Below are positions 6,781 to 49,340 of a stretch of DNA of 64,000 bases, in pieces. Position 1 is the stretch's first letter; every line of letters starts with the position of its first letter. The stretch is taken from assembly GCA_035221665.1 (NCBI GenBank), contig CM069141.1, forward strand, positions 36,766,001 through 36,830,000, given 5' to 3'. Both the position numbers and the translations under genes were made by a program. The DNA is from Okamejei kenojei. Its lineage: Eukaryota. The notes beneath the pieces were generated by a model that worked only from the letters and a program-made list of their open reading frames with translations, was not told where the DNA came from and ran no database searches.

Positions 6781-7276
6781 GCAGTCCATCTATTTCCCAC
6801 TCCCTATCACCCCCAATCCTCTTTCTCTGTTCCCACACACGTGATCATGAGCATCGACACAGGCTGCGGGGGGGGGGGGGGGGGGGGGGGGGAGCTGGGG
6901 CTGGAACAAAGGCAGATGTAAATGAGATCCATTCCGATTGGACATCTGTGAACATTGGGCATTGTGACATCACATGATGGAACGTTCACCAACATTTTGT
7001 GGGTGAGAGCAGTTTGATTTTTTTAACATTTTGAAATATTGGGGGGGGGGGGGGCGTGAAGGATTTTATTAAAAATGTGTACGTAAAAATGTCTAAATGT
7101 AATGAGGAGTGCATTAGTGAATGTAAAAGTGTAATGTCTAGCAAAATGGAAAAAATGGCGGCGTTTGAGCATCTGGTTTCGGCGGACCATGGAATCAAAG
7201 GCCAAAAGTCTTATCTGAAAAAAAAATGGAATGTGACATTATTCACAAGACACACACACGGAGTTTTAAAAGTATA
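5270..7276 (-). mobile_element. Non-autonomous Helitron-like unit A (3' end lost; long GA/CT-rich internal tract)
   Basis: Minus-strand start TATACTTTTAAAACTCCGTGTGTG resembles the 5' ends at 36302 and 40685; 7040-7200 is homologous to 7800-7950. Confidence 0.55.
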
Positions 7277-7995
7277 CTAGGCCAGAGTGCCAGTCCCCGA
7301 ACGTGCTTCAGTACGCGAGTACGGGGGGAGGAGGGGAGGGAGGGGCAGAGGGAAGGGGGGGGGGAGGGAGGGGGGGAGGAGGGGGGGGGGAGGAGGAGGG
7401 GGGTAGGGAGGGGGGGATTGTTAGCGAACTGAACTTACTGTGGAATTAATCCATTAACGGAGCGACTCTCCTGGTGGATTGGAAGTTGTCCCTGCCTTCC
7501 CTCTGGCTGAAGGCAAAAATCGGCTGTTCCCCCGCTGTATTTCGGAGCACGGCGAAAAGCAGCGGTGGAAGAAGCGAGCTTTGTCTTGAGCAAGCGTGAT
7601 AGAGCCGAGCCAAAGCCTGGGGGGGGGGGGGGGAGGGGGGGGGGGGGGGGCGGGGGGAGGAAGTGAAATGGGGAGCCGAATCAGCAGGGGAATCGGCCGT
7701 GGGGAAACAAAAGGCGGCGTTTTTGGAGGAGAGCGGGCTGCAGCAGCTGCCGTTATGGTGCCTGCCCAGCAAGAGGCCTCAAAATGACTGAGTGTGTGGG
7801 GGGGGGGGGGGGGGGGAAGTGAAGGATTTTATTTTAAAAAAGTGTACATAAAAATGTCTAAATGTAATGAGGAGTGAATCCGTGAATGTAAAAGTGGAAT
7901 ATGTCTCGGGGTCTGAAAGTGTGGTTTTGGCGAACCATGGAATCAAATGGGGAAAATTCAGTGGCACCCACAATGCCAGCACACACACACACACT
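7277..7995 (-). mobile_element. Non-autonomous Helitron-like unit B, joined head-to-tail to unit A
   Basis: Minus-strand 3' end ...GGCACTCTGGCCTAG abuts the unit A 5' end; shares the subterminal block and (CA)n with unit A. Confidence 0.55.
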
Positions 7996-10900
7996 GCGGG
8001 ACAAATTTCAGCGCTGGAGTAAAATAAAAATCCACTTCTAATGCCGTCAATGCCGACAACGGGACGGATCTCCCGTACGGGACAAATAAAGGTAAGCCGT
8101 TTATTTTACATATAAACTTGCTTCTTAGGATTACCTTAATCCAAATGTTACTCCCGTTGCGAAAAGGTGATTTAGGCCCCATACGAACCGGCAGTGTTTT
8201 TCCTGACGATATGGGGTTTAAATTCACCGCACACCGCAAAGTTCCAATCCATCGCGTTCCACAAATCCCACTCGCAAGATGATTTAATTAGAAACATAGA
8301 AGCATAGAAATTAGGTGCAGGAGCAGGCCATTCGGCCCATCGAGCCTGCACCGCCATTCAATATGATCATGGCTGATCATCCAACTCAGTATCCTGTACC
8401 TGCTTTCTCTCCATACCCCCTGATCCCTTCAGCCACAAGGGCCACATCTAACTCCCTCTTAAATATGGCCAACGAACTGGCCTCAATTACCTTCTGTGGC
8501 AGAGAATTCCACAGATTCACCACTCTCTGTGTGAAAAACGATTTTCTCATTTGGCTCCTAAAAGACTTTCCCTTATCCTTAAACAGTGACCCCTTGTCCT
8601 GGACTTCCCCAACATCGGGAACAATCTTCCTGCATCTAGCCTGTCCAACCCTTTAAGAATTGTGTAAGTCTCTATGAGATCACCCCTCAATCTTCTAAAT
8701 TCCAGCGAGTACAAGCCAAGTCTATCCAGTCTTTCTTCATATGGAAGTCGTGCCATCCAGGAATCAGTCTGTGAACCTTCTCTGTACTCCCTCTATGGCA
8801 AGAATGTGCCCTCACCAAGACCCTGTACAACTGCAATAGAACCTCCCTGCTCTTGTACTCATCCTTTTGCTATGAATGCCAACATACCATTCGCTTTCTT
8901 CACAGCCTGCTGCACCTGCATGCTACTTTCAATGACTGGTGTACCATGACACCATGGTCTCGCTGCATCTCCCCGTTTTCCTAACCGGTCACCATTCAAA
9001 TAATATTGTGTACCTTCCTGTTTTTGCCACCAAAGTGAATAACCTCACATTATCCACATTATACTGCATCTGCCATGCATTTGCCCACTCACCCAGTCTA
9101 TCCAAGTCATCCTGCAGCCTCCTAGCATCCTCCTCACAGCTAACACTGCCTCCCAGCTTCGTGTCATCCGCAAACTTCGAGATGTTGCATTTAATTCCCT
9201 CGTCCAAATCATTAATGTAAATTGTAAATAGCTGGGGTCCCAGCACTGAGCCTTGCGGCACCCCACTAGTCACTGTCTGCCATCCTGAAAAGGACCCGTT
9301 CACTCCTACTCTTTGCTTCCTGTCTGCCAGCCAGTTCTCTATCCACATCAATACTGAACCACCAATACCGTGTGCTTTAAGTTTGTATACCAATCTCTTG
9401 TGTGGGACCTTGTCCAGATACAACACATCCACTGCTGCCGATGTTAGACTAACTGGTCTGTAATTCCCCGTTTTCTCTCTCCCTCCCTTTTTAAAAAGTG
9501 GGGTTACATTAGCTACCCTCCAATCCTCAGGAACTACTCCAGAATCTAAAGAGTTTTGAAAAATTATCACTAAGGCATTTGCTATTTCTGGGGCTACTTC
9601 CTTAAGTATCCTGGGACGCAGCCTATCTGGCCCTGGGGATTTATCGGCCTTTAATCCATTCAATTTACCCAACACCACTTTCCGGCTAACCTGGATTTCA
9701 CTCATTTCCTCCATCTCATTTAACCCGCAATCCCCTGCTATTTCCGGCAAATTATTTATGTCTTCCTTAGTGAAGACAGAACCAAAGTAGTTATTCAATT
9801 GGTCTGCCATGTCCTTGTTCCCATGATCAATTCACCCGATTCTGCCTGCAAGGGACCTACATTTGTTTTAACTAATCTTTTGCGCTTCACATATTGATAA
9901 AAACTTTTGCAGTCAGTTTTTATGATTCCTGCCAGTTTTCTTTCATACTCCATTTTCCCTTTTCTAATTAAGCCCTTTGTCCTCCTCTGTTGGTCTCTGA
10001 ATTTATCCCAGTCCCCGGTAGGCTGCTTTTTCTGGCTAATTTGTACGCTTCCATCTTTTTCTTTGATACTATCCCTGATTTCCCTCATTATCCACGGATA
10101 CGCCACCTTCCCTGATTTATTCTTTTGCCATACTGGGATGAACAATTGTTGTAGTTCATCCATGCAGTCTTTAAATGCCTTCCATTGCATATCCACCGTC
10201 AACCCTTCAAGAATCAATTGCCAGTCCATCTTGGCCAATTCATGTCTCATACCCTCAAAGTTACCTTTCTTTAAGTTCAGGACACGTGTTTCTGAATTAA
10301 CAATGTCACTCTCCATCCTAATGAAGAACTCAACCATATTATGGTCAACATCTTGCCCAAGGGGCCACGTACAACAAGGCTGCTAACTAACCCTTCCTCA
10401 TTACTCAATATCCAGTCTAGAATAGCCTGCTCCTCTCGTTGGGTTCCTCCACATGATGGTTTAGAAAACTATCCCCGCATACATTCCAAGAAATCCTCTT
10501 CCTCAGCACCCTGCCAATTTGATTCACCCAAAATCTATATGTAGATTGAAGTCACCCATTATAACGGTTTTACCTTCGTTGCACGCATTTCTAATTTTCC
10601 TGTTTGATGCCATCCCCAACTCCACTACTACTGTTAGGTGGCTGTACACAACACCCACTAGCGTTTTCTGCCCTTGGTGTTTCGCAGCTCCAACCCATAT
10701 CGATTCCACATCCTCCAACGCTAATGGTCATTCCTTTCTATTGCATTAATCTCCTCTCTAACCAGCAACGCTACCCCCACCTCCTTTTCCTCTCTGTCTT
10801 ATCCTTCCTGAATATTGAATATCCCTGGATGTTCAGCTCCCAGCCTTGGTCACCCTGGAGCCATGTCTCCGTTATCCCAACTATATCATAATTATTAATA

Positions 10901-15111: not shown

Positions 15112-15176
<65 letters not shown>

Positions 15177-29352: not shown

Positions 29353-29472
29353 CTTCGTGTCGACATCGGCGAGGCAGTCTCTGCGGAACTCGTCGAACAG
29401 ACCGCGGTTCTTCAGATGATCCACGATCTTGGCGATGACGTTGGGGTCTTCTGGCGGCAGGTTTTTGGCCAT
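29353..29472 (-). CDS. BOD1: BOD1 (biorientation of chromosomes in cell division 1; COMPASS Shg1-like domain), coding exon 1
   Basis: Strong Kozak GCCATGG; encodes MAKNLPPEDPNVIAKIVDHLKNRGLFDEFRRDCLADVDTK, containing the BOD1-family signature GLFDxFRRDCLADVDTK; ends AAG|GTGAGG (phase 0); lies in a CpG-rich island. Confidence 0.95.
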
Positions 29473-35577: not shown

Positions 35578-36408
35578 TTAAAATAAATGAGTTAAATGTG
35601 TTCCAAATTGTTATGAATCCAAGTCAAATCTGCATTTCTTTCCTACACATTTCCCTACTCCTACCTTGCCGATCATAGCTTTTGAGATGTTTTTGTATTC
35701 TTTCCATTCCTGACATTGAAGTCACATAGTAGGATCAGTTCATCTCCCTCAGGGTCACAGGCAAGGATTGTTTCAAGATCAAAATAGAAATCTAGATTGG
35801 CTGCACCAATAACTTCCATGATTGAATTACATCTGCTGATGACTGTAGCTTATTGACTCATGAAATACTCATCTACACCCCAGGGCAAGTTGCTGAAGAT
35901 AGTATTCCCTTTCCAGCTTGCCTTCAAGAAGAAGTTAACCAATTTCCATGATTTGTGCTATCGCCATTTCTATCTCATTATATCTCACACAGAATGGCAA
36001 CATTAATGTCAGAGCATCTGTGTTCTGGGGAAATGGCAGCAGAATAATGTTCAGGGCTGTCACTGCTGGGATTGCCTATGGGGACCTTGACAGTTCAGGA
36101 GCAAAACTCTTGATTTAATGTGATGGTCATTAAACACTTCCTACCAAACAGGGTTGACAGAGTAAGGTTTTACATCTGTAGCCAGGAGTTCAAGACAGTT
36201 GGAAGCGAGATTCTGCTGTATGGAAGTCAAACACAAATGTAGATGCTTATCATGCAAGTGCACACACCACACACTAACATGCGCACTGACAGTTGCATAC
36301 ATCTCTATTACTAAAAGTCTGATCTTGACTGCTTTTGGATCACTGTGGTGTAATTTCCAAGAGAACGCCGCCACCTAAGGCCGTCATTTTTGGTCAGCTC
36401 GCTCAGAG

Positions 36409-36445
<37 letters not shown>

Positions 36446-36689
36446 CCTTCCTGCACTAGAGGATTTTTCCCATCAATAAAAAATCAGAGAGATATTAATT
36501 TATTTTTTTAATCGCCATTCGCTCTGCTGCCCCTGCTGGAGGGAGGGTGAGGGACTATAAAACCAGGACATTGTGTGCCTCACTCAGTCTCTGCAAGATG
36601 GAGAAAGCCAGAGGGTCACGTCTCTCTGAGCTCTGAATAGCACTGAATACATGTCTACTCAACTGTGAGTGCCCTTAATGTGGTTCGAT

Positions 36690-37048
36690 AAATGCTTGCA
36701 AAAAGTGTCTATTGGTTCTAAAATGCTTTCAAAAAGTGTCTATTGGTTCTAAAATGCTTGCAAAAAGTGTCTATTGGTTCTAAAATGCTTGGAAAAAGTG
36801 TCTATTGGTTCTAAAATGCTTGCAGAAAGTGTCTGTTGGTTCTAACATGCTTGCAAAAAGTGTCTCTATTGGTTCTAAAATGCTTGCAAAAAGTGTCTCT
36901 ATTGGTTCTAAAATGCTTGCAAAAAGTGTCTCTATTGGTTCTAAAATGCTTGCAAAGAGTGTCTCTATTGGTTCTAAAATGTTTGCAAAAAGTGTCTGTA
37001 TTTGTTCTAAAATGCTTGCAAAAAGTGTCTCAATTAGTTCTAAAATGC
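36690..37048 (+). repeat. 31-33 bp minisatellite, about 11 copies
   Basis: Unit AAATGCTTGCAAAAAGTGTCT(CT)ATTGGTTCTA. Confidence 0.95.
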
Positions 37049-37141
37049 TGCCTGGCCAGAGTGACTGAGCTGCCTGGCCAGAGTGACTGAGCTGCCTGGC
37101 CAGAGTGACTGAGCTGCCTGGTCTGAGTGACTGAGCTGCCA
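37047..37141 (+). repeat. 22-bp tandem repeat, about 4 copies
   Basis: Unit CTGCCTGGCCAGAGTGACTGAG. Confidence 0.9.
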
Positions 37142-38894
37142 GCCTAAGAATCCATTCGGCCCACAATGTCCATACTAGCCCTGTGGAAACCAGTCCCTTT
37201 GACCCACACACACATACTAGCACTCCAGAAAGTCTCCCTCCCCCTCCCTACTGGCCAGCAATATTGGAATTGGTGGAGAGGTGGAATATTGCATTGGGGG
37301 ACCAGCCGTCCCATGTGAAGCTGTGACCTAATGGGTCCCACTTAGTCTAGTTCCATTATAAGCTTCTCATCCTATCTCCCTTATCCAACTCCTGTTGTTC
37401 TCTCCATCCTTAATCCTCTTCACCTCCCATCCTCAGTGTCTCCACCATCTTCTTCACATCATCTTTTGAATAGATAACAATAGCCCTGTAGGGATCACAA
37501 AAGTTGTAAGCTGCCTAAGAAGAAGCCAATGGAAGAGCACACTGTCTTTAGATAATCCTGATTCATTCTTGGTTCATTTCACAATGCTGCCTGCAGCAAG
37601 ACAAGACATTGTGGTTAATGTCCTTTTCACCTGCTGCAATGTCTTACCCTGATTGGTATTCTCCTCAAATAGCAATGTGAAGCTTCTTGCCAACAGAAAA
37701 TAGCTGGAGTGTGGCAGCACAAAGCAGAGAGTGTTTGCTGTCAGACAGATAGTAAGTGAGGTTCAGCTATAGCACAGACAGGCTTATGTGTGTGGGAGAG
37801 GAGAGCCATGGCTCAGCCAGAATTAATACAGGCACTCACAAAAGTACAGACACATGGTACAATCTTGGACTGGAAGAGAACTATCAAATATTACCAGGAA
37901 GAGACTAGCTGTGGCACAGCATGGAATGAAACAGACAGAGCTGAACCCAAGTACGCAGCACAATCTGGATCTGAGGGAGAACTTAACTCTCATAAATATG
38001 AGGACTGAGAATCGGCAACGTCTTCTGAAGGTGAGAGAGAAAAAGAGGGACAGGGGGAGAAAGGAAGTGAGAGAAAGAGGAGGAGGAGGAGGAGGAGGAG
38101 GAGGAGGAGGAGGAGGAGGAAGAGGGACAGAGGGTAAGCGGAGAGCGCCTACATGAGCTCTCTGAAGGATGAAGCCTAGGAAAGCCTAGGTATTCCTTGA
38201 GATACTCCAAGATGGTGCCAGAGCATGGCGACATTCCCTGCTGGTCCCAGAGGAGGACCAACCATCATCCAATATAATCGGTTTACTCTCAAATCTCTTT
38301 TCTCCCTGTAAATCCAGCACCATTCACAATGCTGAGAACTATATTCTGCACTCTTATCTTATTTGCTCTATCTATTGTATTTGAGGTTGACTTGATTGTT
38401 TTTTTATGCATAGTATTGTCTGATTTAGTTGGACAGAACACAGAATAAAGTTTTCATTGTACCTCAGTACATGTGACAATAATAAACCTAAACCGAATCA
38501 CCTTGCTTAAAAAAAGAAACTTTCATTTGCATCAATGGAATTAGTAAAACATTGCCATTGGGTTAATATATTCCAAAGCAGAATGAAATAGATTTCTGAA
38601 ATTGTCATAGCTCTTGTACCTATATAGTTTAATAATGTTAATGCACCTCAAAGTAATTTATTGAATATTTAACAAATATTGTTCCTTTTCCTTTATGTGT
38701 AGGATGCCAGAATAATTGTTAGCAGTCATAACAAAATTAAACAATTGAATAATACCATGTGCTCCAATTTTCCACACTAATCTCTTGTGTGGGACCATGT
38801 CAAAAGCTTTTTGAAAGTCCAGATACACCACATCCTCTCTTCTTCTTGCGTATGACATGTATAGCCTAAAGTTGTAGGACAACTTGTTATATTT

Positions 38895-39494
38895 GATCCC
38901 TGTCACATGGGAGGCCTGGTCCTCCAACGCAACCCGTTCCTCAATGCAATATTCCACCACTCACCCATAGCCCCCACGGGAGGCCAGGTCCCCCAATGCA
39001 ACCCGTTCCCCAATGCAATATTACACCACTCACCCATAGCCCCCACGGGAGGCCTGGTCCTCCAACGCAACCCATTCCCCACCACAATATTCCACCACTC
39101 ACCCATAGCCGACAACTGTGCTGGGGCTGCTCATTCCGCCTTATTCATCGTCCCTCATTTTTAAACTTGAAATAAAATACAATTGTACTTGCTGGCTAGA
39201 AGAACTCAGTGTTCTGTGACTTAAAAAAAAACATTTGAGTCACCTAGCAGGACTCAGTGTACTTGGATAGCAACAAAGTTGCGAGCAGGGCTACAATCCC
39301 ATTGTGACATCACAGCTGTAAGCACAGGAAATAAGCAGTTATTTTTTCCAAGTTTTTGAACATTTTGATTAATAACAAGAAATAATGCATGAAATTTTGA
39401 GACGGCGGTTTGGACTCCACAGGATATATATCTATCGGAATATGTAAAACTTTTACCGTTAGCACGTTTTTTCGAGAAGATGAGAACACACACA

Positions 39495-39525
<31 letters not shown>

Positions 39526-40685
39526 AACAGTTCCCCAACGCAATTCCCCAACGCAATATTCCACCACTCAACTGTTTCCCCCAACACAACCCATTCCCCC
39601 AAAGCAATATTCCACCACTCACCCATAGCCTCTAACTGCGCAGGCGTGACTCATTTCCCTCATCCCCCAGCACTCCCCCCCCCTTCCTCTTCATGTGTGG
39701 GAGGGGAGGAGGGGTGTGGGGGTGTGTGTGTGCAGGGGGGTGGAGGTAGGGCAGAGAGCATGGTGTGGGGGGAGAAGGGGGCGGGGGTGTGTGGGGAGGG
39801 GGTGTGCAGGAGGGGTGTGTGGGGGAGGGGGCTGTGGGGAATGGGGTGTGGGAGAGGGGGGATGTGGGAGAGGATGGAGGGGGTGTTGGGGAGGGGGGTG
39901 GTGGATGGGGGTGGAGGGGGGTGGGGGGTGGAGGAGGGGGGTGTGTGGGAGGGCGGTTGTGGAGGACAGAGGGTGTTTTGTGGGGGAGGGGGCATGGGGA
40001 AGGGGGTGGAGAGTGTGGGGGAAGGGGGGAAGAGGGGTGTGGGGAAGGGCGGATTGTGGGGAGGGGGGTGTGGGGAAGGGGGGGTGGGGTTGGGGGAAGG
40101 GAGTGTGGAGGGGGGTTTCTGGAAGGGGAGTTTGGGGAAGGGGACATGATGGGGGGGATGGGGGAGGGGGATGTGGGAAGGGGGGGTTGCAGCAGATGCA
40201 GCTCACCTTCTGCTCAGCCCGCACCTTCAGCTATCGGCCTCACGCCTCACGCAGCAGCTCCCGGTCCCACTCCAACTTCACTCAGAGGCTTCCGGTTCAA
40301 CTTAACAGCGCCTGGCTCGTCGTGCTCGTCGCCACAGAAGCAGCCCGCACGCTGCTCTCTGCCCGCATGGCTTGTGGACTCAATCAGTGGGGCTCGTGGA
40401 CTCAGCCCCGTCTCTGGGGTTTTATTCTCCTCACTCCGGTGATTGATAGTGGGTGCTCGAAGTTGCGTTACCTTCATGGTGATTGACAGGCGAGAAGACC
40501 AATCTGCTAATCTCACTTTCGTAATATTCCACCGATCTGAACAAAACGTGGTGCGCTTGGAGCAGAGGACAACGATGTGTAAGGTGGCCAAAAAATCCTA
40601 GCGATATAGGGTACCGGTTTTGTGTAAATTTAAAAACAGCGCAAACCAGAAGAGGACACGATGAAAGTTTTAGTAATAGTATAGA
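38895..40685 (-). mobile_element. Composite Helitron-like element (two tandem units, 3' tip missing)
   Basis: Minus-strand 5' end TCTATACTATTACTAAAAC at 40685 beside a (GATA)n run; subterminal CCCCAACGCAATATTCCACCACTCACCCATA motif at 38909-39110 (69 bp x3) and 39530-39630, shared with the ends at 37250-37300 and 42370-42430. Confidence 0.65.
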
Positions 40686-40869
40686 TAGATAGAAGATAGA
40701 TAGGTAGATAGGTAGATAGATAGGGATAAGATGAATTAATGCAGAATGGAGATGATAGGAAATGGGTCATTGTTATAGTTCATGTGAATTTTCAGAAAGT
40801 ATATTTTAATGTGGCTTTCACTGGAATGTTAAAATTCATGGCCAAAAGGCTTCTTATTATTAAAAATGG

Positions 40870-41273
40870 ACAAATTGCTGGAGTAACTCTGCAGGATAGG
40901 CAGCATCTCTAGAGAAAATGGATAAATGATGTTTTGACTGAGAGTGAAAAAGAGGTTGGGGGGGGGGGGGTTGGGAGAAGGAGGAGACAGATTACCTCAA
41001 GCAGGGTGGTTGCCTGATAAGCCAACTTTTGTCTAGAGACAGTGTGATCATAAAAGGGATACATAGTTAAAAACTATGGAACTGGTTAACTGACTTTTAG
41101 TGGTGGAAGGGGGTAATAGAAGTTACCAAAACTAGAAAACCATACCCCTGGGTTGCAAGCTGCCGAAGTGAAATATGAGGTCCTAATTTGCATGTGGCCT
41201 CATCCTGTCAATGGAGGAAGCCCAGGACAGAAAGGTTAGTCCCATGATTACATTGCAACTTCTCCTGCATCTC
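40870..41273 (-). mobile_element. Penelope 3' fragment next to the gap
   Basis: GCTGGAGTAACTCTGCAGG terminal motif; LSVLGFLH..LIFHFGSLQPRG remnant. Confidence 0.7.
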
Positions 41274-41455
41274 NNNNNNNNNNNNNNNNNNNNNNNNNNN
41301 NNNNNNNNNNNNNNNNNNNNNNNNNNNNNNNNNNNNNNNNNNNNNNNNNNNNNNNNNNNNNNNNNNNNNNNNNNNNNNNNNNNNNNNNNNNNNNNNNNNN
41401 NNNNNNNNNNNNNNNNNNNNNNNNNNNNNNNNNNNNNNNNNNNNNNNNNNNNNNN
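41274..41455. other. Assembly gap (182 N)
   Basis: Run of n characters. Confidence 1.
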
Positions 41456-42181
41456 TATTTTCTTCCAAATGCTAGGCCACAGCTTCCCATTTTCACACAT
41501 TCTACTCACATTTTTCCCGTCGAGGCAATAAATATCTTCCCGTCACATTCCCACCTATATTTCCAAACTTTGAAAATCGTTTAAAGATTAAAAAACAGCC
41601 CTGAAAACTCACCCATTTCGGAAAAATAACCCTGAGTTGACGTCGCAAGGCAGGACGGGACACCCCGGGAAGGAAGGGCACTCCAGTGCTCGTGTGGCGG
41701 TGGCTGCCGGCGACCATCGCCTGACAGGGAGGGTGGTGCTGGAACAGGAGTGAGGGCTGAGCCCGGGGCTTGGGATGGGGCCATGACCGAGGCCGAGAAA
41801 GAAGCCGCCGCTGGTACCAAGGACGGGCCTGGGTCCGTGGTCAGGGAGGAGCCTGGAGATGAAGTCATAGCCTGCACTATAGCCCAGGCGGCGGCCAAGC
41901 TGATGACTGGAGTCTACAGCCAGGGCCAGGCCAAGTACGAGAACCAGGCCGAGTTCCGGGCCCTGGAGCTGCTCTACAACCTGGGTAGGTCCTGGGGCAG
42001 GGAATGGGTGTGAGGGGAGGTGGATGAGGGAAATGAGGAGTGAGATGGGGTGGGGAGTGGGGTGGTGGTGGGAGATGGCCCCTTCCTATCTATCCTAACT
42101 CCAACCCTCTCTTCCCCCTTCCCTCTCTACACCCCTCCCTCTCTACACCCCTCCCTCCCTCTCTCCCTTCCCTCCCCTCTA

Positions 42182-42233
<52 letters not shown>

Positions 42234-42455
42234 TGTCTGTCTCCTTCCCTCTCACCCTCTCCCTCTCTACCAGCCCTCCAAGTGATTGAAGAGAGAGGGT
42301 GAAGAGGAGGGTGTGCTGGGCGATGAGGAGAAATGAGCCGCGCCTGCACAGTTGGGGCTATGCGCGAGTGATGCAATATTGCGTTGGGGGAACGGATTGC
42401 GTTGGGGTTATGGGTGAGTGGTGGAATCTTGGGTTGGGGTCTACACTTGGTCTAG
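41456..42455 (+). mobile_element. Helitron-like element (5' end in the gap) carrying an exon-like cargo
   Basis: Ends GCAATATTGCGTTGGGGG..GGGTGAGTGGTGGAAT..CACTTGGTCTAG|T, homologous to the 3' end at 37350. Confidence 0.7.
41899..41984 (+). pseudogene. Captured SAC3D1-like (SAC3/GANP family) exon fragment
   Basis: LMTGVYSQGQAKYENQAEFRALELLYNL-G followed by donor G|GTAGGT; resembles the vertebrate SAC3D1 segment Y..G.yPnQ.eFqaL.LLYNLG; high GC3 codon bias. Confidence 0.55.
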
Positions 42456-42639
42456 TCATCAATATAAATTCATTGGTCATTCATCAAATTCTTGTTTTTA
42501 TTTTTCCTATGTAAAACAACTTTGCTGCACTTCAAGAAATTTCCGTTTCAGAGGGGCACAACGAAGGAATATGCAAGTTATTTCTTCATTTACACTTGCC
42601 CTTTAATGGAAGCACTAGGAACTGATGGAATCTTCTGTA

Positions 42640-42805
42640 GAACACAGAGTGCTGGAGTAACTTAATAGGTCAAACAGCATCTGTGGAGGTCATGAATAGG
42701 TGGCATTACAGGTCAGGTCCCTTCTTCATTCTGAAACATCACCTTTCCATATCCTCCAGAGATGCTGCCAGACCTGCTAAGCTACACCAGAACTTTTGTT
42801 CTACC
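42640..42805. mobile_element. Degenerate palindromic Penelope-derived element
   Basis: GTAGAACACAGAGTGCTGGAGTAAC ... CCAGAACTTTTGTTCTAC inverted arms. Confidence 0.65.
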
Positions 42806-43169
42806 CCTTTAATGGAAAAGGCTATATTGTTAAAAGGTTTGTGATTACATGACAGTTTAGAATAATAATGGAACGATTTGGGGGCAATAAAATACAAGGA
42901 ATTAAATGATGCTATAAATATTTCCATTACTGAAAAGATAAAAGTAAAGCAGTTTTTTAAATAATGTCTTTCCTTCGAATTGTGGCATCAGGGAATGACA
43001 CCAGTACCGACAATAGGGTGAACTCACTTGATTCATTTTAGTTACAGTGGTAAGGAATTCCAGGACTACACGGGGGTGCTGTCTCTCACAATCGGAGCAC
43101 ATGGGTAAATGACACTGGCAATCTCAGGCTTGTCAGCAACTTCATCTTGATCTTCAAAGGAGGAGACAT

Positions 43170-43853
43170 GTGTCACAAGGGAACAGGTTCAAGGATCTGA
43201 CTTGTAGAACAGAAAAAAAGGCACACTCGTCCATTAAGTTACAAATCAGTTTTATTGGCACGAGAGAGAACAAAGACAGTACTTGTCTCGGTATGTGCGG
43301 GGCCCGTTTTACAGCAGCAAACCTCCCTCTGTCTCCGTCCGCGGCGCTGATTGCAACCCAGCCCGTCGATGAACCGCTCTCGTCAAGAACTATTTCATGG
43401 CTTACCGGCGCCTGCCTTTATACAGGCAGAAATCAGTCGTTGAAATAACTGCCAGTAAGTCCTGGTCAATAGCACTGCACCCAAATTCAAATTACAACCA
43501 AATTACACGGGGACTGCATCCGAGCGAGACCCCCCCCCCCCCTTGGAAAGCGCTATCAGCCGCAGACTTGGCGAGCAAGGTACTACACACAGCGCTATCA
43601 GCTGCAGACCTGGTGCGTAAAGCAATACACATAGCGCTACAGACTTGGTGTGCCAAATGTAATACACACTGCACTGATTTGGTGCGCAAAGTTTAAACAG
43701 AGCACTGTCAGCACTGCACGTGGGGCGTTAAACAATGTTCTGTCGACTGCAGTGATATGGTTCTTAATATAGTGCTACCGGCCACAGCGCTATGGTCTTT
43801 AAACATAGCGCTATGGGTCTCAGACTGTTCGGGCAAAATTCTTGTATAACACA
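43170..43853 (-). mobile_element. Probable solo LTR with U3 tandem repeats, apparently nested in another LTR-like repeat (about 43045-44204)
   Basis: Minus-strand TATAAA at about 43422 and AATAAA at 43256-43251; about 42-bp repeats (AGCGCTATCAGC.GCAGAC) at 43549-43730; TG/CA ends plausible but no clear TSD. Confidence 0.45.
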
Positions 43854-45178: not shown

Positions 45179-45472
45179 TACTACTGCTTACCACACAGTG
45201 CCCTCCCCAGACTAATGATTTGAGGCCCACAGGAGCCGTTGGAAGTGAAGGAGGGGGAGGAGCGACACCCGACCGGTAAGGTTTAAAATCAAGCGCGGGG
45301 CTTGTTTTTACCTAAATCCATAACATTCCATTCAGAGAAGTTTTTTTTTGTTGAGGAAGCCGCCAATTGGTGGGAAGTGGACTAGGGTAAGCAGCTGATT
45401 GGCAGTCAGATTCCAGCAGTTTGTTGTGTACTTTGTATTGTGTTGATATTGTATCCTGTGTAAGGGGGGAGT

Positions 45473-46399
45473 ATGAAGGCCAGGGCAGTGTACTGTTCTG
45501 GATGTCAGATGTGGGAGGTCAGGGAATCTGATAGCCCTCCAGACATCCACATCTGCGCCAGGTGTGTCGAGATGGGGCTCCTAAAGGATTGTGTTAGGAA
45601 CCTGGAGCAGCAGCTCGATGATCTCCGTCTGGTCAGGGAGAGTGAGGAGGTCATAGAGAGGAGTTACAGGGAGGCAGTCACTCCCAGACCACAGGAGGCA
45701 GACAAGTGGGTCACGGTTAGGAAGGGCAAGAGGCAGGGGCTAGAGAGTACCCCTGTGACTGTACAACTGGAAAATAGGTACTCGGGTTTGAGTACAATTG
45801 GAGGGGACAGTCTACCTGGGGGCAGCAACACCGGCCGGGTCTCCAGCACAGAGATCGGCCCTGATGCTCAGAAGGGTAGCACAAAGAGGAGGACAATTGT
45901 AATAGGGGACTCTATAGTTAGGGGGTCGGATGGGCGATTCTGTGGACGCAGTCGGGAAACCCGGATGGTAGTTTGCCTCCCTGGTGCCAAGGTCTCGCAC
46001 GTGTCGGAACGTGTCCAAAAGATTCTGAAAAGGGAGGGAGAGGAGCCTGCTGTTGTGGTACACATAGGTACCAATGACATAGGCAGAAAAAGAGATGAGG
46101 TCCTGAAGGGAGAATTTAGGGAGTTGGGGGGAAAGTTAAGGAGAAGGACCAAAAGGGTAACGATTTCAGGATTACTGCCTGTGCCGCGTGACAGTGAAAG
46201 TAGGAATGGAATGAGGTGGAGGATAAATGCGTGGCTGAGGGACTGGTGCAGTGGGCAGGGATTCAAGTTTCTTGATCACTGGGACCTCTTTTGGGGAAGG
46301 CATGATCTGTACAAAAAGGACGGGTTGCACTTGAACCCGAGGGGGACCAATATCCTGGCAGGGAGATTTGCAAAGGCTACTGGGGAAACTTTAAACTAG
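45473..46399 (+). CDS. CR1 ORF1p: N-terminal Cys zinc finger, coiled coil, SGNH/GDSL esterase-like domain
   Basis: 308 aa open; CSGC..CARC; VIGDSIVRG, HIGTNDIG, DGLHLN motifs. Confidence 0.9.
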   Translation: MKARAVYCSGCQMWEVRESDSPPDIHICARCVEMGLLKDCVRNLEQQLDDLRLVRESEEVIERSYREAVTPRPQEADKWVTVRKGKRQGLESTPVTVQLENRYSGLSTIGGDSLPGGSNTGRVSSTEIGPDAQKGSTKRRTIVIGDSIVRGSDGRFCGRSRETRMVVCLPGAKVSHVSERVQKILKREGEEPAVVVHIGTNDIGRKRDEVLKGEFRELGGKLRRRTKRVTISGLLPVPRDSESRNGMRWRINAWLRDWCSGQGFKFLDHWDLFWGRHDLYKKDGLHLNPRGTNILAGRFAKATGETLN

Positions 46400-46445
46400 A
46401 AAGGCTGGGGGGAGGGACTCGGGTAGAGGGGGCTAGGGGCAGGGT

Positions 46446-49340
46446 GTGGGGCAAGAGGCAGAGAAGGGAAGCACTCGGACCCAAAATGTAGGCGAGAAAG
46501 AGGAAAAAGATAATAGACAGAGAATAAGGGATGGTGAGTTTATAAAATGGGTATATTTTAATGCTAGGAGCATTGTAAGAAAGGTGGATGAACTTAGAGC
46601 CTGGATTGACACCTGGAAATATGATGTTGTGGCAATCAGTGAAACATGGTTGCAGGACGGCTGTGATTGGAAACTAAATATTCCAGGATTTCGTTGCTTC
46701 AGGTGTGATAGAATTGGAGGGACCAGAGGTGGAGGTGTTGCATTGCTTGTCAGAGAGGATATTACAGCAGTGCTTTGGCAGGATAGATTAGAGGGCTCGT
46801 CTAGGGAGGCTATTTCGGTGGAACTGAGAAGTGGGAACGGTGTAGCAACACTTTTAGGGGTGTATTATAGACCGCCAAATGGGGAGCGAGAATTGGAAGA
46901 GCAAATATGTAAGGAGATAGCAGATATTAGTAGTAAGCACAAGGTAGTGATTGTGGGAGATTTCAATTTTCCAAAAATAGACTGGGAAACACATTCTGTA
47001 AATGGGCTGGATGGTTTGGAGTTTGTAAAATGTGTGCAGGATAGTTTTTTGCAGCAGTACATAGAGGTATCGACCAGAGAAGGGGCAGTGCTGGACCTCC
47101 TGTTAGGAAATGAGGCAGGTCAGGTGACGGAGGTATGCGTTGGTGAGCACTTCGGGACCAGTGATCATAATACCATTAGTTTCAATATAATTATGGAGAG
47201 AGTCAGAACTGGACCTAGGGTGGAGATTTTTGATTGGAGAAAGGCTAACTTTGAGGGAATGCGTAAGGATTTTAAAAGGAGTGAATTGGGACATTCTGTT
47301 TTATGGGAAGGATGTAGAAGAGAAATGGAGGACATTTAAAGTGGAAATTGTAAGAGTACAGAATCTTTATGTCCCTGTTAGGGTGAAAGGAAATAGTAAA
47401 AATTGGAAAGAGCCATGGTTTTCAAGGGAAATTGGACACTTGTTTCGAAAAAAGAGAGATATCTACAATAATTATAGGAGGTATGGAGTAAATGAGGTGC
47501 TAGAGGAATATAAAGAATGTAAAAAGAATCTTAAGAAAGAAATTAGGAAGGCTAAAAGAAGATATGAGGTTGCTTTGGCAAGAAAAAGGTGAAAGTAAAT
47601 CCAAAGGGTTTCTACAGCTATATTAATAGCAAAAGGATAACGAGGGATAAAATTGGACCATTAGAGAGACAGAATGGACAGCTATCTGCAGAGCCAAAAG
47701 AGATGGGGGAGATATTGAACAATTTCTTTTCTTCGGTATTCACCAAGGAGAAGGATATTGAACTATGTGAAGTAAGGAAAAAAAGTAGAGTAGCTATGGA
47801 AACTATGAGATTCAAAGAGGAGGAAGTACTGACACTTTGTGAAAAAATATAAAAGTGGATAAATCTCCAGGTCCTGATAGGATATTCCCTAGGACATTGA
47901 GGGAAGTTAGTGTAGAAATAGCAGGAGCTATGACAGAAATATTTCAAATGTCATTAGAAACGGGAATAGTGCCGGAGGATTGGCGTACTGCGCATGTTGT
48001 TCCATTGTTTAAAAAGGGTTCAAAGAATAAACCTAGCAATTATAGACCTGTTAGTTTGACGTCAGTGGTGGGTAAATTAATGGAAAGGATACTTAGAGAT
48101 AATATATATAAGCATCTGGATAAACAGGGTCTGATCCGGAACAGCCAACATGGATTTGTGCCTGGAAGGTCATGTTTGACAAACCTTCTTAAATTTTTTT
48201 GAAGCGGTTACTAGGGAAATTGATGAGGGTAAAGCAGTGGATGTTGTCTATATGGATTTCAGTAAGGCCTTTGACAAGGTTCCCCATGGAAGGTTGGTTA
48301 AGAAGGTTCAATCTTTGGGTGTTAATGGTGGAGTAGCAAGATGGATTCAACAGTGGCTGAATGGGAGATGTCAGAGAGTAATGGTGGATGGCTGTTTGTC
48401 AGGTTGGAAGCCGGTGACCAGTGGGGTGCCTCAGGGATCTGTGTTGGGTCCACTGTTGTTTGTCATGTACATCAATGATCTGGATGATGGGGTGGAAAAT
48501 TGGATAAGTAAGTATGCAGATGATACTAAGATAGGTGGTGTTGTGGATAATGAAGTAGATTTTCAAAGTCTACAGAGAGATTTGGGCCATATGGAAAAGT
48601 GGGCTGAAAGATGGCAGATGGAGTTTAATGCTGATAAGTGTGAAGTGCTACATCTTGGCAGGACAAATCAAAATAGGACGAACATGGTAAATGGTAGGGA
48701 ATTGAGGAATGTTGTGGAACAGAGGGATCTAGGAATAACTGTGCATAGTTTCCCTGAAGGTGGAATCGCATGTAGATGGGGTGGTAAAGAAAGCCTTTGG
48801 TGTGCTGGCCTTTATAAATCAGAGCATTGAATATAGGAGCAGGGAAGTAATGTTAAAATTGTACAAGGCATTGGTGAGTCCAATTTTGGAGTATGGTGTA
48901 CAATTTTGGTCGCCTAATTATAGGAAGGATGTCAACAAAATAGAGAGAGTACAGAGGAGATTTACTAGAATGTTGCCTAGGATCCAGCAACTATGTTACA
49001 GAGAAAGGTTGAACAAGTTAGGTCTTTATTCTTTGAAGCGCAGAAGGTTAAGGGGGGACTTGATTGAGGTCTTTAAAATGATGAAAGGGATAGACAGAGT
49101 TGACGTGGATAAGCTTTTCCCATTAAGGGTAGGGAAGATTCAAACAAGAGGGCATGACATGCGAATTAAGGGACGGAAGTTTAGGGGTAACATGAGGGGG
49201 AACTTCTTTACTCAGAGGGTGGTGGCTGTGTGGAATGAGCTTCCAGCAGAAGTGGTGGAGGCAGGATCGATTTTTAACATTTAAAAGTAAAGTCAATTGG
49301 TATATGGACGGGAAGGGAATGGAGGGGTATGGTCTGAGTG
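46446..49340 (+). pseudogene. CR1 ORF2 (APE endonuclease + reverse transcriptase), frameshifted as assembled
   Basis: [51 protein letters not shown]; about 6 frame switches. Confidence 0.9.

Follow-up and report, generated by a model that had tools for sequence, protein, structure and literature searches.

We found that a 64-kb window of the Okamejei kenojei genome (contig CM069141.1, positions 36,766,001 to 36,830,000; the window is the whole stretch of DNA analyzed, and coordinates refer to it) harbors a complete nonautonomous Helitron1 (HLE1)-type element, H1, which carries in its interior, in sense orientation, a TATA box motif, an initiator (Inr)-like motif, a putative first exon, and a splice-donor-like site. 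H1 occupies positions 36302 to 37350 of the plus strand (1,049 nt), and we hold it very probable that it is a genuine Helitron, an assignment well supported by its termini, its target site, the lack of a target duplication, and the related ends of two neighboring relics. The cassette is real as a set of motifs, and its function as a promoter and first exon is plausible, as a prediction. Our preferred explanation, to which we assign a probability of about 45%, is that the cassette was captured from a host gene and represents its 5' end.

H1 sits between an A (36301) and a T (37351), starts with TC at 36302, and terminates with CTAG (37347 to 37350). Its edges show no target duplication of at least 2 nt, and we detected no terminal inverted repeats within it, the two ends not being complementary. 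An earlier note on this DNA had described a complete Helitron-like element with these ends and this A|T target, and direct reading confirmed each of them. The subterminal hairpin that it also described stood in part: a 17-nt imperfect palindrome (37323 to 37339, 6-bp stem, 5-nt loop) indeed stops 11 nt short of the end of H1, but it contains one mismatch, and its folding energy was no better than that of shuffled sequences (z = -0.48, with 59/200 shuffles equally good), so that it corresponds to an HLE1 hairpin by position only. Hairpins of this type and at this distance were found at 3 of the 80 CTAGT sites in the window, the other two being within CR1 LINE copies. By definition, an HLE1 element begins with TC, closes with a short hairpin and CTRR, and occupies an A-T target (PMC11417382); H1 displays the TC start, the CTRR end, a subterminal hairpin, and an A-T insertion devoid of duplication and inverted repeats.

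H1 has no coding of its own. We found no RepHel open reading frame (ORF) in it, the longest stop-to-stop frame (155 aa) being derived from minisatellites, and no RepHel Pfam match in the scanned longer frames, from which we conclude that H1 is nonautonomous. Classification as a Helentron (HLE2) was ruled out, since HLE2 elements insert at T-T and bear short inverted repeats at their termini whereas H1 has an A-T target and noncomplementary ends, and the absence of inverted ends and of a target duplication ruled out a MITE or a TIR element. A SINE or LINE tail and a structured RNA were rejected as well; an Rfam scan of positions 36000 to 43000 yielded 24 matches, none of them at the gathering score.

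Two diverged Helitron-like relics, H2 and H3, have one or both end regions in common with H1, all three being located within 6.2 kb, and BLAST of the 64-kb window revealed no close copy of H1. H2 (about 40685 to 38900, minus strand) has an H1-like left end and subterminal repeats. The left terminal region of H1 with its TC start (36302 to 36399) is homologous to the 5' end of H2 (40679 to 40582, minus strand; 63% identity over 98 nt, E = 0.004), and a subterminal motif (37266 to 37318 in H1) is common to the three elements, with 79 to 87% identity over pieces of 26 to 34 nt. H1 and H2 are alike in their end regions and different in their interiors, and H2 lacks the hairpin and CTAG, at the place of which it is abutted by another repeat and a CR1 piece. 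H3 (41456 to 42455, plus strand) ends with CTAG|T at 42455; its 5' end was not seen, having been lost in or before an N gap (41274 to 41455), and it resembles H1 in the end region, with a different interior. H1 and H2 cease to be homologous at about 36399, some 150 nt ahead of the TATA motif, and no site with TATA and Inr was found in H2, which places the cassette outside the common left end. Its absence from H2 would be in keeping with an acquired segment or with a separate autonomous ancestor.

The interiors of H2 and H3 are CpG-rich (in the top 2% of 1,264 windows of 300 nt by CpG count), and each is followed by a sense donor-like site. H2 contains at 40295 a motif that we take to be ETS-like, with a strong sense donor 86 nt later (at about 40207). 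H3 contains an ORF whose tail bears a weak resemblance to SAC3/GANP (E = 0.006, short of the curated cutoff) and terminates at a donor-like site near 41984. It is possibly a captured exon of a SAC3D1-like gene; the ORF matched nothing among longer proteins, in the PDB, or in the Atlas, and the SAC3/GANP reading therefore stays a lead.

The TATA motif of H1, TATAAAA (36556 to 36562), has a G-rich stretch on its 5' side. An Inr-like motif (YYANWYY, 36584 to 36590), which reads TCAGT from 36584, positions the predicted start at the A at 36586, 30 nt past the T of the TATA motif, exactly the canonical spacing. An ATG in a Kozak context (A at -3, G at +4) opens a 12-codon ORF (36598 to 36636), the stop codon of which (36634 to 36636) is located 28 nt ahead of the donor; because it closes before the donor, this ORF would behave as an upstream ORF. 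The second ATG (36651 to 36664), which is weak in context, runs for four codons and 2 nt to the predicted exon end, in phase 2. The donor-like GTGAGT (36665 to 36670) agrees with 7 of 9 consensus positions, its exon side being nonconsensus, and the hexamer is identical to that of the inferred donor of BOD1 exon 2. The TATA, Inr, donor, and Kozak patterns used throughout are those that we take to be the consensus motifs. The note had listed each of these motifs, and all are where it placed them. The cassette is CpG-poor (observed/expected ratio [o/e], 0.26). The sequence around the first ATG (36595 to 36601) also resembles a YY1 motif, of a kind typically situated a short distance past vertebrate start sites. 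Upstream of the cassette, H1 contains a 36-nt poly-C run (36409 to 36444), and a pure poly-G run of 64 nt is present at 15112 to 15175; the lengths of both runs may be assembly artifacts.

Minisatellites follow the donor, as the note had said; there are two on the plus strand, one with units of 31/33 bp repeated 11.5 times (11 units, 36681 to 37049) and the other with 22-bp units repeated 4.3 times (37047 to 37140). Eight of the 11 longer units contain an inverted CCAAT pentamer (36690 to 37045), with a spacing of 31 to 33 bp that approximates three helical turns, and CCAAT occurs by chance in 6.6% of shuffled 31-mers of the unit composition. NF-Y is the factor that we presume to be tied to such pentamers at 33-bp spacing; its fuller consensus was not found in the units, and our literature search retrieved no paper on NF-Y sites at 33-bp spacing. 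A TGACnnnGC core, presumably antioxidant-response-like, is present in the 22-bp unit; it was noticed post hoc and has a chance expectation of 1 to 2% per unit. A protein-coding role for the minisatellite ORFs was rejected, with no Pfam match at the cutoff.

Our search for a parent gene or a second copy covered protein sets, prokaryotic genomes, plasmids, phages, and the 64-kb window. An 18-nt pattern from the TATA region, with up to 3 mismatches allowed, matched only its own site. For a 45-aa frame spanning the cassette, no candidate emerged among proteins of 24 to 79 aa, and its three matches among 1.84 billion representatives were all rejected as tandem-repeat proteins summing weak stretches. 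Pattern scans of prokaryotic genomes (two scans, aimed at contaminating host DNA), plasmids, and phages had no match; like the protein-level searches, these are weakly informative for a vertebrate parent. In the literature, as covered by a search that left most subscription journals outside, no paper described a promoter cassette in a skate Helitron; the H1 family may already be described in Repbase. The main text of PMC10115646 does not mention Helitrons, and the PMC12001565 supplement has no skate rows.

BOD1 is encoded on the minus strand, with coding exon 1 at 29353 to 29472 (ATG at 29472) and further coding exons at about 26480 to 26359, 24823 to 24638, and from about 23411. Exons 1 and 2 match the Pfam family COMPASS-Shg1 above the cutoff, and the best matches of exon 3 are shark BOD1 proteins. 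Over three exons, 140 of 142 residues are identical in Amblyraja radiata, 138 in Mobula, and 128 to 133 in sharks (10 named proteins compared), which points to a batoid and most likely a skate; a PDB search with exon 1 yielded no informative match. The predicted start of the cassette is located about 7 kb from that of BOD1 and is divergent from it, with a CR1-type LINE in between, so the position of H1 upstream of BOD1 proposed in the earlier note was borne out. A link between the cassette and BOD1 was not supported: the cassette faces away, the LINE intervenes, and BOD1 is equipped with a CpG island of its own (CpG o/e, 0.97). An effect of H1 on BOD1 is unlikely.

Over the next 27 kb, we saw no host coding sequence to which the donor could be joined among the 94 plus-strand frames of at least 50 aa (36660 to 64000, low-complexity and N-containing frames dropped), a size at which shorter exons would escape. 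Pfam hits were obtained for 6/94 frames, all of them CR1 LINE domains (endonuclease, reverse transcriptase, and esterase). A near-full-length CR1-type LINE is found at 45464 to 49284, with an esterase (GDSL) ORF1 and pieces of endonuclease and reverse transcriptase, and the other CR1 copies in the window are 89 to 96% alike. Elsewhere, a CpG-rich region at 6840 to 8350 contains internally repeated blocks, with no gene identified and no match elsewhere in the window, and may represent a further element or else a regulatory island; a second CpG-rich region (43470 to 43850) contains a 42-bp degenerate tandem repeat.

A real Helitron might carry such motifs by chance in an ordinary transposon interior, without promoter ancestry or activity. 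We evaluated this explanation with a rule written after seeing the cassette: TATAWAW, an Inr 26 to 34 nt downstream, GTRAGT within 300 nt, and a Kozak ATG. An Inr at this distance accompanies 10 of the 86 TATA-like sites in the window, and the full set accompanies one. Under this post hoc rule, shuffles of the window (n = 100) contained on average 0.51 sets of TATA, Inr, and donor without the Kozak ATG and 0.18 with it, so a reader of 64 kb could meet such a set by chance; the nonconsensus exon side of the donor, the early closure of the first ORF, and the weak second ATG also argue for this explanation. Against it, dinucleotide shuffles of H1 (n = 5,000), assessed with the same post hoc rule, gave TATA, Inr, and donor with a probability of 0.0026 and the full set including Kozak with a probability of 0.0002, TATA, Inr, and donor were found together in 0/59 other 1,049-nt tiles of the window, and the spacing is exactly canonical and the orientation sense. 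Such a set is less likely to fall by chance in sense inside a 1-kb Helitron than anywhere in 64 kb. The cassette thus exceeds chance modestly, in a way that is suggestive and short of proof, and we consider a purely fortuitous origin rather unlikely.

The cassette could also be the Helitron's own transposase promoter with a mostly noncoding first exon, H1 having arisen by internal deletion from an autonomous skate Helitron, the donor of which would once have been spliced to a RepHel coding exon. In its sense orientation and at 250 nt from the left terminus, it sits where a transposase promoter would be expected, the autonomous elements Helitron-1_AmRa and Helitron-2_AmRa exist (PMC11417382 supplement), and transcripts are reported to start inside Helitron left ends in maize constructs (PMC10095026). 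We nevertheless find this origin quite doubtful, as H2 has the common left end and lacks the cassette (though H2 may stem from another autonomous family) and as the longer frames of H1 contain no RepHel remnant. Co-option of this H1 copy as a regulatory element of BOD1, either an enhancer or a divergent lncRNA promoter and possibly via the CCAAT minisatellite, has in its favor the 7 kb that separate it from the BOD1 start, the 8 phased inverted CCAAT pentamers, and a precedent in Caenorhabditis, where clustered factor sites borne by Helitrons regulate nearby genes (PMC6927752). It is very improbable in view of the orientation of H1, the intervening CR1 copy, and the CpG island of BOD1, and also because CCAAT arises in 6.6% of shuffled 31-mers and the fuller NF-Y consensus is lacking.

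We favor capture of a host-gene 5' end by a nonautonomous Helitron1 on the basis of the termini and target site, the absence of the cassette from the common left end, its rarity in shuffles of H1, and its sense orientation. The CpG-rich interiors and sense donors of H2 and H3 and the SAC3/GANP-like tail of H3 count as indirect support. Several observations speak against capture: no parent locus or second copy in the sets searched (proteins, prokaryotes, plasmids, phages, and the window), 0.18 to 0.51 sets expected per shuffled window under a post hoc rule, a strong ATG that closes before the donor, a CpG o/e of 0.26, and a weak hairpin. In bats, capture is biased to gene 5' ends and elements with such captures reach higher copy numbers, the promoters of 15 genes having been amplified to 4,690 copies (PMC4224331). 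In Xenopus, 17 of 19 captured fragments are gene 5' ends, and an orientation bias was noted (PMC12001565). Skates have autonomous HLE1 families, and in Leucoraja erinacea HLE1 was called 11,154 times (PMC11417382 supplement).

Under the capture explanation, a skate RepHel transposase likely copied H1 into an A-T site. As extrapolated from Helraiser, the transposase would nick the TC end, displace one strand, and stop at the hairpin-CTAG, and read-through past a weak 3' end would add flanking host sequence (PMC4778049). Transcription would start at 36586, and the transcript would be spliced from 36664 to a downstream acceptor. The captured segment would serve as a portable promoter and trap exons only if it landed within a gene or upstream of one, in the sense direction. 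Even with capture, the present copy is probably a passenger, since it is CpG-poor and faces away from BOD1 into LINE-rich DNA.

The dispersal of captured promoters by bat Helitrons, which the earlier note had mentioned, is published and was experimentally demonstrated for HelibatN3 (PMC4778049). In this element, found in Myotis bats (Pritham and Feschotte 2007, as cited in PMC4224331), the promoter of NUBPL is combined with six codons and a donor; exon trapping by it was shown in HeLa cells, and it accounts for three transcript starts in Myotis brandtii (PMC4778049). H1 resembles HelibatN3 as a nonautonomous TC...CTAG Helitron with a promoter motif, a predicted short first exon, and a donor-like site in sense, a likeness at the motif level. 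The two differ in that HelibatN3 has a known parent gene, NUBPL, and about a thousand counted copies, and its six codons run into the donor whereas the strong ATG of H1 meets a stop before it; set against HelibatN3, the promoter motif of H1 is TATA-type and CpG-poor. Helraiser, a reconstructed bat Helitron, has the same TC/CTAG ends, AT target, and palindrome 11 nt before the end, but it measures 5.3 kb, encodes a 1,496-aa transposase, and has a 19-bp palindrome, in contrast to the 1,049 noncoding nucleotides and the 17-nt, once-mismatched palindrome of H1 (PMC4778049). Heli1Xen1 of Xenopus laevis and the HSE-bearing Helitrons of Caenorhabditis are comparable to H1 in gene 5'-end capture, which is putative for H1, and as minisatellite-rich nonautonomous elements with clustered factor sites (PMC12001565, PMC6927752); capture or binding was demonstrated for them, and for H1 the comparison concerns motifs. 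From the same host lineage come Helitron-1_AmRa and Helitron-2_AmRa of Amblyraja radiata and the HELIANO HLE1 set of Leucoraja erinacea, which belong to the same group as H1, as compared by names and counts. These are autonomous and encode RepHel, whereas H1 is noncoding, and they are the likely source of the transposase for H1.

The concept of a Helitron that spreads a promoter, an exon, and a donor is already known, and skate Helitrons are already catalogued, so the mechanism itself would be no novelty even if the cassette is active; if the cassette is due to chance or silent, H1 is an ordinary nonautonomous repeat. The claim is directly testable, since RNA-seq and ATAC-seq data exist for the little skate (PMC10115646). 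If conserved and active, the cassette would add skates, with HLE1 insertions numbering in the order of ten thousand, to the lineages in which Helitrons disperse promoters, a process so far documented mainly for vesper bats. A broader proposal, which we view as improbable, is that skate Helitrons, like those of bats, captured gene 5' ends repeatedly and that the H1 family is an active, high-copy portable promoter that rewired skate genes. In this reading, the three elements would represent such captures, with H1 of the TATA type with a phased CCAAT minisatellite, H2 of a CpG/ETS type, and H3 ending in a SAC3/GANP-like exon, the promoter-like segment of each being followed by a sense donor. If repeated capture is true, skates would be a second vertebrate lineage with large-scale promoter dispersal by Helitrons.
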